From the NCBI GenBank assembly GCA_963928415.1, contig CAWVEX010000023.1, positions 10 through 64,009 of the forward strand: 64,000 nt of DNA, given 5' to 3'. Position 1 is the first letter of the stretch. Every line of letters starts with the position of its first letter. Source of the DNA: Bacillota bacterium. GTDB lineage: Bacteria; Bacillota; Clostridia; TANB77; CAG-508. The position numbers and the translations under genes were made by a program. Of this stretch, positions 43,723 to 51,005 are shown one piece after another. A model generated the notes under the pieces. The model saw only the letters and a program-made list of their open reading frames with translations. It was not told the origin of the DNA and made no database searches.

Positions 43723-43909
43723 GTTTTGCACCTCCCTTTAGTGTATTAAACTATAACATATGATATTATAGCATAGTTTTTCGTATATGACAAGTATTTG
43801 AAGAAAAAAAGTTTATTTGACATAACACAGTTAATTGAAGAAAGTAACTTCTATTCATAATAATAATTTGAAGCTATACGAAATTGCGTTTATTTTTTTA
43901 CAAAATGTA

Positions 43910-43939
43910 TTGACTTTTGTTAATAAAAAGAGTTATAAT
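43910..43939 (+). promoter_or_regulatory. Promoter of the type III TA cassette: TTGACT, 18 nt, TATAAT
   Basis: ttgact at 43910-43915 and tataat at 43934-43939. Confidence 0.6.
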
Positions 43940-43979
43940 GAATATAATAATAAAGATACACAATGTATCTTGTTCAAAT

Positions 43980-44082
43980 CAAATGTTAACCGCCACCCTG
44001 TTGGCGAGATATAAATGCACAGGTGAGCAAATGTTACTCGCAACCCTACTTGCGACAAATAAATGCGTAGGTGGACAAATGT
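43980..44082 (+). ncRNA. ToxI/CptI-like antitoxin RNA: two 48-nt tandem repeats plus a 7-nt partial third
   Basis: Repeat A is 43980-44027 and repeat B is 44028-44075, with 36 of 48 positions identical by hand alignment. CAAATGT recurs at 44076-44082. The region is GC-rich relative to its flanks, and compensatory changes preserve a hairpin and a pseudoknot. Confidence 0.75.
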
Positions 44083-44090
44083 AGCAAGAA

Positions 44091-44116
44091 ATCTACCCTT
44101 AAAAGGTAGATTTTTT
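44091..44116 (+). terminator. Intrinsic terminator between the repeat RNA and the toxin ORF
   Basis: atctacc / ggtagat 7-bp stem with a 7-nt loop, followed by TTTTT. Confidence 0.7.
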
Positions 44117-44134
44117 GTTAGAAATGAGGTTATA

Positions 44135-44605
44135 ATGAAAGTAGAAAATGGGAAATTTTATTTTATAAAAGATAATTTTTTTGATTTATTTAAAGATTAT
44201 AAATTAATGCAAAATAAGGAAAATGGAAATAAAAGACCATGTTATTTTTGTTTTAACGATATAGAAGATGAACGAATAGTATGGTTTGTCCCAATATCTA
44301 GTAAAGTCGAGAAGTATAAAGCTATATATGAGAATAAAAAGAAAACTAGAAAAAAAGTTTATAATTTTGTTTTTGGTAAAGTATTAGGAAAAGAAAAAGC
44401 ATTTTTAATTCAAAACATATTTCCGACGACAGAAGAATACATAGAAAGTAAATATCAAAGTAGAAATCAAGATGTAGAAATAACAGAAAGTTTAAAAAAT
44501 GAAATAATAGAAACCTCTATGAACGTTATACATTTAGCTCTAAAAGGTATTAATATTCCGTTTTATGATATTATAGAAATGAAGAAGATACTAATATATA
44601 ATTAG
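44135..44605 (+). CDS. ToxN/AbiQ-superfamily type III toxin (endoribonuclease), 156 aa
   Basis: SD GAGGT lies 4 nt before the ATG at 44135. KFYFIKDNFFDLFKD...RPCYFCF...VWFVPISSKVEKYK parallels the ToxN/AbiQ N-terminal pattern (KFYTI..YI.YL...RP.IGI...YF.PLSSPK). Size and context both fit. Confidence 0.7.
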   Translation: MKVENGKFYFIKDNFFDLFKDYKLMQNKENGNKRPCYFCFNDIEDERIVWFVPISSKVEKYKAIYENKKKTRKKVYNFVFGKVLGKEKAFLIQNIFPTTEEYIESKYQSRNQDVEITESLKNEIIETSMNVIHLALKGINIPFYDIIEMKKILIYN

Positions 44606-44659: not shown

Positions 44660-44866
44660 CTATCTTAATTGAGATTCAGCTTGTTGAATTAATTTCTTAA
44701 CCATGTTTCCGCCTATTTTACCAGCGTCTCTTGCAGATATATTTCCATTATAACCATCTTTTAATGAAACACCAACTTCGTTAGCTACTTCATATTTGAA
44801 TTTGTTAAGAGCATCTGTTGCTTCTGGAACTGCTTTGTAATTGCTGTTGCTTGATGAATTTGCCAT
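44660..44866 (-). CDS. Alpha/beta-type small acid-soluble spore protein
   Basis: KFKYEVANEVGV.L...YNGNISARDAGKIGGNMVKKLI. The likely start is MANSSS (44866), after AGGAGGTG. Confidence 0.85.
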   Translation of the reverse strand: MANSSSNSNYKAVPEATDALNKFKYEVANEVGVSLKDGYNGNISARDAGKIGGNMVKKLIQQAESQLR

Positions 44867-44896
44867 TACGTTCACCTCCTAAAAGTTTTTGTTGAA

Positions 44897-44967: not shown

Positions 44968-46407
44968 TTATTTTTTTAATTCTTCTAGGAACATTTCATT
45001 AAGCATTTTAGGATTTGCTTTTCCTTTTGTTTGTTTCATTGCTTGTCCTACTAAGAATCCAAGTGCTCTATCTTTTCCTGCTTTATAATCTGCCACTGAT
45101 TGCTCATTTTCTGATAAAACTTTTAGAACAACTTCTTTTATAGCATTTTCATCAGATATTTGAATCCATCCTTTTTCTTCAATTATTTTGCTTGGAGATT
45201 TTGGATTTTCAAATAATTCATCTAAGACTTTTTTACCAATACTTGAACTTATTGTTCCTTTATCTATTAATGTTACCATTTCTGCTAATTCTTCTGCAGT
45301 AAAAGGTATATCTTCTGGTTCTAATTCTTTTTCATTTAATATTCTTGCTACATCTGAATTTAGCCAGTTACATACTGCTTTATAATTTTTAGAAATTTCT
45401 CCTGCTTTTTCGAAAAAGTCTGATAAATATTTTGATGAAGTTATACTATTACTATCTTTTTCAGAAAGACCATATTTATTCATATATCTTTCTTTTCTTG
45501 ATTCTGGCATTTCTGGAAGTTGTTTCTTTATATTTTCAATATATTCATCTGAAAGTTTTATTGCAACTAAATCAGGTTCTGGGAAATATCTATAATCTTG
45601 AGAATCTTCCTTATTTCTCATAGGGAATGTTCTTCCTTCTAAATCATCCCATCTTAAAGTTTCCTGTTCTATTTTGTTTCCATGCTCTAATTCATAAATT
45701 TGTCTTTCTTTTTCATATTCAATTGCTCTTGAAATTGATTTAAAAGAATTCATATTTTTCATTTCTGTACGAGTTCCAAAAGGCTCGCCAAATTTATGTA
45801 CAGACACATTGACATCAGCTCTTAATGAACCTTCTTGCATCTTACAATCTGAAACTTCTATATATTGAAGTATTGATTTTAGCTTTTTTAAATATCTATC
45901 TACTTCTCCAGTTGATCTTAAATCTGGTTCCGATACTATTTCAATTAGTGGAACACCTGCTCTATTTAAATCTACTAAACTTCCTGAACCAAATTCATTA
46001 TGATTTAGTTTTCCTGCATCTTCTTCTATATGAATTCTAAGTATTCTTATTTTTTTAGGATTACCAAAATCATCTTCTATTTCTATATATCCATGATTGC
46101 AAAGTGGTTTATCGAATTGTGATATCTGATAAGATTTAGGTAAATCTGGATAAAAATAATTTTTTCTATCATTTTTACTATCTTTTGAAATTTCACAGTT
46201 TGTAGCTAAGCCTGCTTTTACTGCATATTCCACTACTTTTTCATTAAGTACTGGAAGTGCTCCTGGAAGTGCCATACATACAGGACATATATGTGTATTT
46301 GGTTCTGCTCCAAATTCTGTTGGGCATGAACAAAATATTTTTGTTTTTGTTGATAATTCTGCGTGAACTTCTAATCCAACAATTAGTTCATAATCTTCTA
46401 CTGCCAT
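44968..46407 (-). CDS. gatB: Asp/Glu-tRNA amidotransferase subunit B
   Basis: YELIVGLEVHAELSTKTKIFCSC, NRAGVPLIEIVSEPD, 479 aa. Confidence 0.95.
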   Translation of the reverse strand: MAVEDYELIVGLEVHAELSTKTKIFCSCPTEFGAEPNTHICPVCMALPGALPVLNEKVVEYAVKAGLATNCEISKDSKNDRKNYFYPDLPKSYQISQFDKPLCNHGYIEIEDDFGNPKKIRILRIHIEEDAGKLNHNEFGSGSLVDLNRAGVPLIEIVSEPDLRSTGEVDRYLKKLKSILQYIEVSDCKMQEGSLRADVNVSVHKFGEPFGTRTEMKNMNSFKSISRAIEYEKERQIYELEHGNKIEQETLRWDDLEGRTFPMRNKEDSQDYRYFPEPDLVAIKLSDEYIENIKKQLPEMPESRKERYMNKYGLSEKDSNSITSSKYLSDFFEKAGEISKNYKAVCNWLNSDVARILNEKELEPEDIPFTAEELAEMVTLIDKGTISSSIGKKVLDELFENPKSPSKIIEEKGWIQISDENAIKEVVLKVLSENEQSVADYKAGKDRALGFLVGQAMKQTKGKANPKMLNEMFLEELKK

Positions 46408-46480
46408 CTAATTTCCTCCTTTTTATTTTTTAATAGTATAAAAATTTGCATTGTTTTGTTATTGTTCATTATCCTTTGTT

Positions 46481-48130
46481 TTACCTGCCATCGTCTTGTT
46501 CTTCATCACTGGATTTTCTACCGTCTCTTACTATTGTATTGTTTCCTGTTTGAGAGTATTTTATCTTGTCTACTTTATATTTCTTCAAATAATTTTTATT
46601 GTAAAATTTTGTATTATTTGATTTATCATAACTATTCAAGTTATCCTTTATTTTTTCGTATTCTCTTTCAATTCTATCATAGCAATTTTTTAATCTATTT
46701 ATTATTCCTATTTGGCCTATGTCAAAATTTTCATTATACCCTAAAACATTCCTATTACTGTTCATGTAATCTGATATTCTGTTTAATATAGTGTCTCTTA
46801 AATTTGTTTTCAATATATTATCCAAGACACAAGCAAATTGAATTACTGTCGTTATTCTCTTCCTATCATTCTCGCTAAGGTACCATCCATCAGACACTAC
46901 TGTTTTTCCAGTTTCCGAGTCTAAATATCTTATTCTATCAATGTCACTTTTGCTACCCGAATATTTACCATAGAAATGAATTATAGTCTTATCTCCTACT
47001 TTATCAATAAAACTTATATTATAACATTCATTATCTGCAATAATATGTATGCTTTTCATAAAGTCCATGACTACTAATTTAGAATCTGGCAAATATACCA
47101 ATTTTAAATTTTTATTATCTAACCTTTTTCTTTCAAATTCTTCTCTTTGTTCTTTTGTAATAAATTTAGCTAACCAATCTAAAGATATTTTGTCTATATC
47201 TTCTTCTTTTAGTGGAAGTGTAGGTTCTATTGGTTCTACTGATTTTTCAGTTTCTTTTGGTTTTGTTCCAAAATAATCTCTTATTCTCCTAAAAATACTT
47301 TTCTTTTCCTTTGCTATTGCCAAAGCTGTTGTTTCAAGTTCTTCTGTTTTTTCTTCTCGTGAATTATTTTGCTGTATATTAGCACCTCTTATGGCTTCAT
47401 TTTGGTTTTGTACATAACTTAAAAGTTTCCATATTTCATCATCTGCAAATGCTTCTTTTCCACTCATTAATTTATACTTTATTCTTTCTAAGACATTACT
47501 AACCTGTGGAGTAGTATTTTGAGATAATCTATTTATTTCACCATTTAAGAATATTGTAAGACCTGGTATATCTTGTCCTGATATTTCAAACTCATCTATT
47601 GCACCTTCTCTTACTCTTCTTACCATAAAGTTACCATATAAATTGTATAAAGCTTTTTCTATTTTATCTCTATCTTCAAAACTATATTGTGAAATTGAAC
47701 TATCATAAGTTTGTTTTAATTTTTCAAATTCAGTTTCATAATCTTCTAAAGACAGTTTCTTACCATCTTTTTGCATATCTTGTATTTGTTGAAATATTGC
47801 TTGTCCTTTACTTTCTAACACCTTTTGATTTCCGTCATTTTTCTTATATGCATCTAGTTCTAGATTTAACTCAGTATATTTTGAGTAAAATTCCTGTTGA
47901 CTACTTATATGCAATAAAGCATTATATTTTTTTAATAAGCCTTCTGCCGCTTCTGAGTCATACAACAATATTTGAGATATTTCTACTTGCAATGGTTTTA
48001 ACATTGTTTCATATACTGTATTTCTTTGCTCTTGTGTAAACTCTATATCACTCTCAAGTTCTAGTTTTGGTCTTAACATTTCATTAAAATCTGGTAAACT
48101 TCCATTAGAAAAGCTATCTTCTTCTTTCAT
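46481..48130 (-). CDS. Hypothetical 549-aa protein inserted between gatA and gatB
   Basis: Long uninterrupted ORF. AAGGAGGAG SD, with the ATG 12 nt after the gatA stop. No TM segment, signal peptide or domain motif that I recognise. The N-terminal half is helical and E/K/Q-rich, and the C-terminal half appears mixed alpha/beta. Confidence 0.6.
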   Translation of the reverse strand: MKEEDSFSNGSLPDFNEMLRPKLELESDIEFTQEQRNTVYETMLKPLQVEISQILLYDSEAAEGLLKKYNALLHISSQQEFYSKYTELNLELDAYKKNDGNQKVLESKGQAIFQQIQDMQKDGKKLSLEDYETEFEKLKQTYDSSISQYSFEDRDKIEKALYNLYGNFMVRRVREGAIDEFEISGQDIPGLTIFLNGEINRLSQNTTPQVSNVLERIKYKLMSGKEAFADDEIWKLLSYVQNQNEAIRGANIQQNNSREEKTEELETTALAIAKEKKSIFRRIRDYFGTKPKETEKSVEPIEPTLPLKEEDIDKISLDWLAKFITKEQREEFERKRLDNKNLKLVYLPDSKLVVMDFMKSIHIIADNECYNISFIDKVGDKTIIHFYGKYSGSKSDIDRIRYLDSETGKTVVSDGWYLSENDRKRITTVIQFACVLDNILKTNLRDTILNRISDYMNSNRNVLGYNENFDIGQIGIINRLKNCYDRIEREYEKIKDNLNSYDKSNNTKFYNKNYLKKYKVDKIKYSQTGNNTIVRDGRKSSDEEQDDGR

Positions 48131-48142
48131 TGCTCCTCCTTA

Positions 48143-49615
48143 TTATTTTTTGAATGAAGGTTTATGATTTTCTCTAAACTTGATTTCTTGTTCAAATTTA
48201 TATGCAACATTTAGTATCTTTTCTTCTTCAAATCTATTTCCTATTAATTGCATTCCTACTGGCATTCCATTACTATCTACTCCACATGGAAGTGATATTG
48301 CAGGAACACTTGCAATATTTATAGATACAGTACATATATCTGCTAAATACATTTCTAGTGGATTATTGCATTTTTCTCCTATCTTAAATGCTGTTGATGG
48401 AGATACTGGAGTAAGCAATACATCATATTTACTAAATGCTTTATTAAATTCATTTTTTACATATGTTCTAACTTTTTGAGCTTTTTTATAGTAAGCATCA
48501 TAATATCCTGAAGATAATACATAAGTTCCAAGTATTATTCTTCTTTTTACTTCATCTCCAAATCCTTCAGTTCTTGAATTTACATATAATTCTTTTAATG
48601 AATTAAAGTCTTTTGCTCTATATCCATATCTTATTCCATCAAATCTACCTAGGTTTGAACTAGCTTCTGCACAAGCAATAATATAATAAGCTGCAAGTGA
48701 TGCTTTAGCTACATCAAGTGAAGTTTCTTCTACTGTAGCTCCTAACTTTTTATATGTTTCTATTGCTTTTTCTAACTGTTCTTTTACCTCTTTATTTATT
48801 CCCTCTCCAAAGAATTCCTTAGGTACACCAATTTTTATTCCAGTTAAATCTTTTTCTAGATTTTTTGTATAATCTTTTTTCTCTATATTATATGATGTAC
48901 TATCTTTTTCATCATGTCCAGCTATTATATTTAAAAGCATTGCACTATCTTTTACATCTTTAGTTATTGGTCCTACTTGGTCTAAAGATGAAGCAAAGGC
49001 AACTAGTCCATATCTGGAAACTAATCCATAAGTTGGTTTTAATCCTACAACTCCACAAAATGCTGCTGGTTCACGAATTGATCCACCTGTATCACTTCCA
49101 AGTGCCCATGGAACTAAATCACCTGCAACAGCAGCTGCACTACCACCTGATGAACCGCCTGGAACTCTATTTAAATCCCATGGGTTATGTGTAATTTTTA
49201 TAGCAGAATTTTCTGTTGAGCTTCCCATTGCGAATTCATCCATGTTTAGTTTTCCAAGGCTTATTATTCCTTCTTTATTTAATTTTTCTACAACTGTTGC
49301 ATCATAAGGTGATACAAAGTTTTCAAGCATTTTTGAACTACAAGTTGTTTTAACACCTTTTGTGCATAGGTTGTCCTTAATTCCTATAGGAATACCAGCA
49401 TACTTAGATAATTCTTTATTTTCTTTTCTTTCTTCATCTATTTTTTTAGACTCATTTAATGCCTCATCAGTTGTAAGTGTTACAAAAGCATCAACATCTT
49501 TTTCTTTTTCATTAATTCTATCTATGTAAGCTTTTGTTATTTCTTCTGATGTTAATTCATTATTTTTTAATTTTTCCACTAACTCATGTACTGTAAGATT
49601 TGTAATACTCTCCAT
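48143..49615 (-). CDS. gatA: Glu-tRNA(Gln) amidotransferase subunit A
   Basis: Amidase signature [12 protein letters not shown]. 490 aa. Confidence 0.95.
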
Positions 49616-50284: not shown

Positions 50285-50572
50285 TTAGTTTAATACTTTT
50301 GGTATTTTGAACATGTTTCTTTCTTTTTCTGGTGCATTTTCCATAATGCCTTCTTTGTTATCAAAATCAACTATTTCATCTTTTCTAAATACATTTGAAC
50401 TATCATTTGCACCAATAGTTTCATCAAGCTCATCTAAATTCATTGAGTTTAATAATTCAGTATAATTTAATATATCTTGCAAATTATTTAAATATTTGTC
50501 TATTTCTTCATCTTTAATTTTTATATCTGCTAAATTTGCAATATGCAATAACTCTTCTTTACTAACTGTCAT
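50285..50572 (-). CDS. gatC: Asp/Glu-tRNA amidotransferase subunit C
   Basis: VSKEELLHIANLADIKI.DEE... The likely start is the ATG at 50572, after AAAGGA. The track start at 50593 would overlap the upstream gene. Confidence 0.85.
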   Translation of the reverse strand: MTVSKEELLHIANLADIKIKDEEIDKYLNNLQDILNYTELLNSMNLDELDETIGANDSSNVFRKDEIVDFDNKEGIMENAPEKERNMFKIPKVLN

Positions 50573-50585
50573 TATTTTTTCCTTT

Positions 50586-51005
50586 CTAATCAATTTGATT
50601 TACAATATTTTCACTAATATTATTTCTATTTATTTCATTAGTATTTGTAGTATTTTCAGCTATGTTTTCTGCTTTATTTTGAGCTTTATCCTCTAAGTTA
50701 TTTTCAATACTATTAGCATTATCATAAAAGCTCTCTAAACTATATACAGATGCTTGTCCTTGTGCATTAGATGTCTCATTATATCTGTCTTTTATTTCTT
50801 CATAAATAGCATTCATATCTCCATCATATGCATTGGAAATTCTTTCAGTTTCCTCTAACTGAGCTCTTCTTCTAGATGTAGTATATATAAAAAAGCTTGA
50901 AAGAATTATTACTATAAAAAATATTGTTGCTACTACTATCATTGTTACAGAACCTTTTTCACTTTGTTTCATTTGTTCCTCTCTTTCTAGTGAATTTTTG
51001 ATCAC
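50586..51005 (-). CDS. Small membrane-anchored protein with a TadE/G-like N terminus
   Basis: SEKGSVTMIVVATIFFIVIILSSFFIY resembles the Tad pseudopilin-type N-terminal anchor. The C-terminal part is an N/E-rich tail. Confidence 0.35.
   Translation of the reverse strand: MIKNSLEREEQMKQSEKGSVTMIVVATIFFIVIILSSFFIYTTSRRRAQLEETERISNAYDGDMNAIYEEIKDRYNETSNAQGQASVYSLESFYDNANSIENNLEDKAQNKAENIAENTTNTNEINRNNISENIVNQID

Follow-up and report, generated by a model that had tools for sequence, protein, structure and literature searches.

The genes gatC, gatA and gatB of the tRNA-dependent amidotransferase form one of the most conserved and most contiguous operons in bacteria, and their product GatCAB is a known target of interbacterial toxins such as Tse8. 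A lineage-specific partner of this enzyme has been described in Helicobacter pylori, in which Hp0100/QueH stimulates GatCAB and stabilizes the Asn-transamidosome (PMC8406222). We analyzed a stretch of 64,000 nucleotides from a Bacillota bacterium (contig CAWVEX010000023.1; hereafter the window, to whose positions all coordinates refer) in which these three genes keep their canonical order and share one strand, the operon being read on the minus strand. Between gatA and gatB of this operon lies an open reading frame (ORF) of 549 residues, here called X, which is the subject of this report.

Modular proteins that recombine their C-terminal parts are known from several polymorphic systems, including the LXG toxins of type VII secretion systems (T7SS), phage receptor-binding proteins, HsdS and CapRel-type fused sensors. 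X is built in a comparable manner, with a constant N-terminal module and a C-terminal module whose variants are exchanged between lineages, and it is found within an essential operon. We tentatively favor a recognition or adaptor role for X, as a protein at the membrane periphery that is expressed from an essential operon and tracks a fast-changing ligand with its C-terminal module. An earlier reading of the DNA, made from its letters without database searches (the sequence-only reading), had proposed either a partner or regulator of the transamidosome or a selfish or defence gene exploiting the operon, and both ideas are weighed below.

Gene, family and genomic context of X

The gatA stop codon TAA (48143-48145) and the ATG start of X (48128-48130) are separated by a spacer of 12 nt, and the minus-strand junction reads TAA-T-AAGGAGGAG-CA-ATG, in which the Shine-Dalgarno motif is strong; gatB follows 73 nt beyond the end of X. 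This placement was given correctly by the sequence-only reading, the peptide strings it quoted are present in the translation of X, and its impression of a host-like composition agrees with a G+C content of 0.27-0.29, the same as that of the neighboring genes. The chance of 549 stop-free codons at 27% G+C is ~8e-22, and X is a genuine protein-coding gene; a pseudogene or spurious ORF was rejected on the grounds of purifying selection in the N-terminal module and of 112 homologous clusters. No terminator-like hairpins were found on the minus strand between gatA, X and gatB. From the spacing, the Shine-Dalgarno motif and the terminator scan, X is predicted to be co-transcribed and translationally coupled with gatCAB. 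Promoter-like hexamers in the window were not in excess (49 versus 58 +/- 8 expected in shuffled sequence), and those inside X were disregarded because the count was not above chance. An Rfam scan of the whole window gave 0 matches, and therefore no riboswitch or T-box is placed in the operon.

The family of X is rare and limited to a few uncultured Clostridia, and all relatives considered here come from metagenome assemblies. A word-indexed search returned 42 relatives, none of them annotated, and an exhaustive hidden Markov model search of 1.84 billion cluster representatives (50% identity) returned 112 at E <= 1e-3 and 55 at E <= 1e-30, most family members being 500-570 aa long. A second word-indexed search (alignment A2) added no proteins or fused domains, and a scan of JGI metagenomes with alignment A1 found nothing. 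Among 185,579 species-representative genomes there were 9 matches, all in metagenome-assembled genomes (MAGs) titled uncultured Clostridium sp. or Clostridia bacterium. In the literature searched, no account was found of an ORF separating gatA from gatB in Clostridia.

The position of X is fixed in 16 loci, and the ORFs are intact at all 17 relatives' loci (loci and proteins of relatives carry L and P numbers, respectively). gatA lies directly upstream with a spacer of 12-27 nt in 15 loci, across which the identity of X ranges from 91% to 37% while that of GatA falls only to 70%. gatB lies downstream with 0 or 1 intervening gene in L001-L015 and L023, and in L024, where X is 28% identical, it adjoins X with a 2-nt gap. 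The arrangement gatA-X-(0 or 1 gene)-gatB was thus found in 15 loci from several MAG species and is not peculiar to a single strain; X has been retained vertically at the gat position across a small clade of uncultured Clostridia. Members at 21-25% identity have no gat neighbors. Their contexts are pth-rng (RNase E/G)-X (L016), X-ylxM (L017), X followed by folD-dprA (L025), and a pair of tandem X paralogues (764 and 801 aa, L022:210-5448), each with two C-terminal modules and separated by a DivIC-like gene (153 aa; Pfam DivIC 2e-4, below cutoff). Since gat linkage holds at >=28% identity and fails at 21-25%, it is a property of one subfamily and not of the whole family.

Neither sequence nor structure libraries placed X. 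Nothing above threshold was found for X in Pfam, NCBIfam, PADLOC or PDB sequences, and PHROGs gave only a weak match of unknown function that was likewise below threshold. When 40 diverse relatives were scanned singly against Pfam, PHROGs and PADLOC, no family was common to them; PADLOC-DB 2.0 assigned 0 families to X and 2 scattered single-member matches among the 40. Matches to MMTV_SAg, putidacin and phrog_34884 were set aside as noise, being weak and not family-wide (phrog_34884 at 9e-5, in 3/40 members only). Among PDB sequences only designed repeat proteins came up, whether the query was the protein itself or a profile. In Foldseek, neither the full model (searched against PDB and BFVD) nor the C-domain model (searched against PDB) had a match at E < 1e-3, and template modelling (TM) scores were <= 0.2-0.3; the best PDB match of the C-domain had E 0.12 and TM <= 0.2. 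The earlier statement that X contains no known domain therefore holds, and the remote-homology check on predicted structures likewise linked X to no characterized family. Judged by these libraries, X is new at the level of both protein family and fold.

Relatives of X were also absent from phage and plasmid collections, with 0 found by tblastn among 50,697 phage records (INPHARED) and 72,556 plasmids (PLSDB) and 0 in a pattern scan of IMG/VR with tblastn confirmation. Because of these results, the host-like G+C and the stable chromosomal position, X is considered not to be mobile, and a recent foreign insertion was rejected on composition and synteny. X has no homology to known GatCAB partners and belongs neither to the LXG/T7SS toxins, nor to the defence families of PADLOC, nor to mobile elements.

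The tight, coupled position between gatA and gatB, with gat linkage extending from 99% to 28% identity, raises the question of whether X is an accessory subunit or regulator of the transamidosome that binds GatCAB (or ND-AspRS, ND-GluRS or tRNA) and localizes or modulates it, for example at the membrane. Conservation of the N-terminal module under purifying selection is consistent with this role, the basic linker described below could bind tRNA rather than membrane, and Hp0100/QueH (PMC8406222) supplies a precedent, since it is likewise a lineage-restricted protein tied to GatCAB (by function in H. pylori, by gene position for X). We nevertheless regard such a partner as unlikely. The synteny behind the proposal of the sequence-only reading stood up, but distant members are unlinked to gat genes, no enzyme-like residue pattern is conserved, and a cassette-swapped, hypervariable half is unexpected beside GatA and GatB. 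No similarity of X to GatC, GatF or QueH was found in Pfam and NCBIfam scans of X or in Pfam scans of the 40 relatives. The operon position itself is weak evidence, because unrelated kinases and GH3 genes also sit within the operon. If X does touch GatCAB, it would be the second lineage-specific transamidosome factor after QueH and the first polymorphic one.

Domain architecture and a putative membrane tether

AlphaFold2 modelling with 27 homologues predicted helices at residues 33-255 (predicted local distance difference test, pLDDT, ~70), disorder at 250-300, a C-terminal part at 300-516 (pLDDT ~88) and a disordered tail. This matches the guess of the sequence-only reading that a helical N-terminal region is followed by a compact alpha/beta domain, which we place at residues 300-518. 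The C-terminal part modelled alone (67 sequences) reached a pLDDT of 87.6 and a predicted TM score of 0.80, with four strands (aa 370-417 in full-length numbering) against helices, the final one 44 residues long. Whatever the function of X, this module is a confidently predicted domain without structural match in an unannotated family. The acidic end of the protein, ...EEQ(G/D)DGR, recurs among close alleles.

The absence of transmembrane segments and of catalytic motifs, both asserted earlier, was borne out by the analysis. The maximum Kyte-Doolittle mean over 19 residues is only 1.07, and among 40 diverse members no enzyme-like set of conserved polar residues was found; only I51 and W234 are invariant, and the few near-invariant positions are mostly hydrophobic. 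The N-module is acidic (isoelectric point 4.7).

A feature that the sequence-only reading had missed is a conserved amphipathic helix in the linker between the modules. Outside the N-module nothing is better conserved than this motif, which reads TALAIAKEKKSIFRRIRDYFG in the window protein and GIFQRIKQMFAR and GIFQRLGNLFRK in more divergent members; the helix at aa 267-290 of the window protein is TTALAIAKEKKSIFRRIRDYFGTK. Its hydrophobic moment of 0.83 ranks 1/539 in the window protein; in the 40 diverse members the median rank is 1.3% and the net charge is +2 to +8 in every one, the window segment at aa 266-296 having a net charge of +4. In a 68% identical relative (P0007) the equivalent segment matches Pfam FtsA_C, the tail that carries the membrane-targeting helix of FtsA, at E 0.004, which is below the gathering score. 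The segment KEKKSIFSRIKDFFG of X also resembles the end of Bacillus subtilis MinD, KKGMMAKIKSFFG. From these properties we infer that the linker helix tethers X peripherally to the membrane, as the helices of MinD and FtsA do for their proteins. X resembles those proteins in having a short cationic amphipathic helix after a disordered stretch, conserved across homologues. It differs in that the helix is internal and that X has no ATPase or actin-like domain; membrane binding of X is a prediction. The helix stands at the N-terminus just in three natural short forms (P0140, P0146 and P0148; 269-279 aa), which consist of the amphipathic helix and the C-module only. Other members (P0099, P0108 and P0152) contain two C-modules each.

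Mosaic evolution of the C-terminal module

Substitution rates differ between the two modules of X. Ratios of nonsynonymous to synonymous substitution rates (dN/dS) were calculated pairwise by the Nei-Gojobori method, and rates were compared between the window and six relatives. The flanking genes for MurG, TopA, GatC, GatA and GatB have dN/dS of 0.06-0.12 at dS of 0.32-0.84, versus 0.35-0.72 for X as a whole. In four evenly diverged comparisons the N-module has a dN/dS of 0.18-0.21 and the C-module one of 0.45-0.56, with values below 1 throughout X except in short linker and tail segments. GatA and GatB are 92-93% identical while half of X is hypervariable. In pairwise comparisons of ten close alleles, the helices of the N-module share on average 84-97% identity (73% in H59-72) and the PLPL...WLA segment 92%; the averages drop to 17-37% over the beta-sheet and the next helix and to 17-51% over the whole core at aa 338-474.

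The two modules are also incongruent with each other. In P0006, P0011, P0013 and P0021, N-modules of 98-99% identity are joined to C-modules that agree with one another at 23-51%, and P0004 and P0011 have N-types that differ (88%) and C-modules that are 97% identical. A tract common to the window and L023 is centered on X (Table 1), with a dS of 0.067 in X versus 0.40-0.82 around it. Between the window and L010, sequence from the 3' end of gatA to the linker is 96.8% identical (p = 6e-23), blastn detects no similarity over ~46600-47150 (amino acid identity 36%, dS 1.2; flanks 96-100% identical), and identity returns to 98-100% at 46200-46400, which is largely 5' sequence of gatB; the dissimilar block is about 650 nt long. 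Recombination tracts are concentrated on X in 2/6 comparisons, and topA, murG and gatB are uniform. A second clade follows the same trend, with identities of 99% for GatA, 98% for GatB, 98% for the N-part of X and 82% for its C-part.

Because the C-module dS of 1.2 exceeds the background of ~0.5, C-module alleles are older than their host lineages. Homologous recombination moves them, with the conserved sequence on either side serving as arms. The pattern carries the signature of a balanced or diversifying polymorphism, although an averaged dN/dS below 1 is by itself no proof of positive selection, and taken together these comparisons fit balanced polymorphism better than drift.

The same observations bear on whether X is simply a housekeeping scaffold of the envelope, of division or of sporulation, associated with the membrane, with a weakly constrained C-module, ordinary recombination and an accidental operon position. 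An amphipathic helix of the FtsA/MinD kind joined to a helical N-module without catalytic residues would suit this role, as would the DivIC-like gene between the paralogues of L022, the proximity of the window locus to dcw genes (mraY-ftsW-murG) and to a gene for a small acid-soluble spore protein (SASP), and dN/dS values below 1 nearly everywhere in X. We consider a scaffold of this kind rather unlikely, since N-modules that are nearly identical carry discrete C-module classes that are deeply diverged and shuffled among them, one class occurs on different N-types, and tracts are concentrated on X while nearby genes are uniform. No similarity of X to known division or sporulation proteins was found in Pfam, NCBIfam or the PDB by Foldseek.

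A conserved helical N-terminal part followed by a variable C-terminal part is also the architecture of LXG/T7SS-type polymorphic toxins, in which a delivery domain precedes a toxin, and the 125-aa membrane protein that follows X in L004 could be an immunity protein. That X is such a toxin strikes us as scarcely credible. Pfam scans of 40 members at E <= 0.05 found no LXG or WXG100-like domain and no toxin; the C-modules are all homologous, alignable and of one predicted fold, keeping the motifs YLPD, LDxIxxTN and FY; the window has no room for an immunity gene ahead of gatB; and no secretion genes occur in the locus. X does share with polymorphic modular proteins in general a constant N-part, a cassette-like C-part and allele classes older than the host lineages. 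It differs from them in having no homology to them, C-modules of one fold, and no immunity gene, secretion signal or effector domain, and in sitting in an essential operon instead of an island or phage.

Under the recognition or adaptor role that we favor, the linker helix would anchor X at the membrane's inner face, like the targeting helices of MinD and FtsA. The hypervariable beta-sheet core of the C-module passes from lineage to lineage as a cassette through homologous recombination, for which the N-module and linker provide one homology arm and gatB the other. The C-module would bind a ligand that changes fast, for instance a protein of a phage or mobile element or a partner peculiar to the strain, and X would be under diversifying selection. 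The gatCAB operon would act solely as a secure expression platform, with X neither catalytic nor obligatory in tRNA transamidation. The strain-variable surroundings of X, with alternative kinases, GH3 or small membrane proteins in the neighboring slots and a CptIN type III toxin-antitoxin beyond gatB, speak for this role. Of the two ideas of the sequence-only reading, the selfish or defence gene lies closer to the mosaic, diversifying pattern; X is, however, not mobile and matches no known defence family.

Several points weigh against the role that we favor. X contains no known defence, toxin or sensor domain and no recognizable effector domain, and PADLOC found nothing family-wide. The averaged dN/dS of the C-module is below 1, and relaxed constraint together with recombination could look similar. 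That X has stayed so firmly beside gatA and gatB through deep divergence could point to a real functional link with GatCAB. Membrane binding by the linker helix is a computed property, as is the case as a whole, which is built on metagenome assemblies by computation alone.

A more specific variant, which we hold to be quite improbable, would make X a membrane-tethered, allele-switching sensor whose C-module recognizes phage or competitor proteins and whose N-module acts on or protects the tRNA-dependent amidotransferase. Conflict sensing would then be tied directly to the supply of Asn/Gln-tRNA or to mistranslation. More broadly, a conflict or recognition role of X would mean that essential operons can be safe harbors for diversifying genes, a niche overlooked by searches of defence islands.

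Other variable genes in and around the operon

The gat operon of this lineage departs from the canonical contiguous arrangement by up to three interruptions (a kinase, X, and a GH3 or small membrane protein) whose occupants vary among strains, and among them X has persisted over a long evolutionary time, one half of it being exchanged in the manner of antigenic cassettes. The sequence-only reading had rightly noted that X splits the gat genes; it had overlooked a second split, between gatC and gatA, by an ORF of 198 aa. Positions are collected in Table 1.

Table 1. Positions of the gat operon, of X with its parts, and of adjacent genes in the window
Feature	Positions	Strand	Remarks
139-aa ORF	50586-51005	-	between topA and gatC
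gatC	50285..50593	-	first gene of operon; Pfam GatC 1.8e-14
P-loop (Tmk-like) kinase, 198 aa	49632..50228	-	between gatC and gatA; slot variable among relatives
gatA	48143..49615	-	Pfam Amidase 1.8e-161
Shine-Dalgarno of X, AAGGAGGAG	48133..48141	-	within gatA-X spacer; read from sequence
X, orphan-family ORF, 549 aa	46481..48130	-	stop codon included; ATG start; 112 family representatives, 0 annotated
N-module (aa 28-255)	47366..48049	-	all-helical, conserved; nine helices in AlphaFold2 model, pLDDT ~70
Linker motif (aa 267-290), TTALAIAKEKKSIFRRIRDYFGTK	47261..47332	-	cationic amphipathic helix by hydrophobic moment; putative membrane tether
C-terminal alpha/beta module (aa 303-518)	46577..47224	-	4-stranded sheet and helices; no structural match
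Hypervariable C-module core (aa 338-474)	46709..47119	-	exchanged as a cassette; from identity, blastn and N/C incongruence
Charged disordered C-terminal tail	46484..46576	-	ends EEQDDGR; pLDDT below 50
Recombination tract common with L023	~46600..48400	.	97.1% nt identity vs 87.9% in flanking genes, Fisher p = 1.3e-36
X-gatB spacer, 73 nt	46408..46480	-	no terminator-like site
gatB	44968..46407	-	last gene of operon; Pfam GatB_N 3.3e-121, GatB_Yqey 2e-52
SASP gene	44660-44875	-	immediately downstream of gatB
CptIN-family type III toxin gene	43980-44605	+	NCBIfam 2.1e-49, above cutoff

The 198-aa kinase ORF has weak dTMP-kinase and AAA matches and matches PHROG 761 (thymidylate kinase) at 8.9e-13. 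It occupies the gatC-gatA slot in the window, L001, L008 and L023; in L007, L009 and L010 the slot holds a 225-aa Thymidylate_kin protein (Pfam 3.7e-19) that is 20% identical to it, and in L004, L006 and L013-15 the slot is empty. The kinase is thus the second insert of the operon, variable in its own right. The slot between X and gatB is likewise variable in relatives, being empty or occupied either by a GH3 protein with a membrane anchor or by a membrane protein of 125 aa. The GH3 gene, NagZ-like and of glycoside hydrolase family 3, lies at L006:9650-10921 and also occurs in L011, L013 and L015, which form a more distant clade; in L004 its place is taken by the 125-aa protein, which is polytopic.

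Downstream of gatB, the SASP gene was assigned from a Pfam SASP match in the orthologous gene of L001, which is 96% identical to that of the window, and it indicates that the host is a spore former. Beyond it, the CptIN gene is preceded by a tandem repeat of 48 nt x 2.1, the expected RNA antitoxin array. The block at ~43900-44580, inserted between the SASP gene and rpsT, is absent from 5/5 close relatives whose contigs span the region, and the insertion is therefore specific to the strain. A CptIN gene (52% identical) directly follows gatB at L012, a distant locus.

One locus associates X with a recombinase. A 1.7-kb metagenome contig (L026:1-1682) encodes the C-terminal part of a large serine recombinase and then a resolvase N-domain (135 aa), whose reading frame runs on into residues 369-518 of an X allele resembling P0038; the next X gene starts 25 nt on. 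This could represent tandem X copies with a recombinase element or a chimeric assembly. A switch of the shufflon or invertase type was rejected for X, since the window has no room for silent cassettes and this possibly chimeric contig is the sole link to a recombinase.

Upstream of gatC, the 139-aa ORF begins with a membrane helix (MKQSEKGSVTMIVVATIFF...). Its relatives share the N-terminus, have unrelated C-terminal parts and range in length from 101 to 543 aa, so that this gene too is membrane-anchored and strain-variable.

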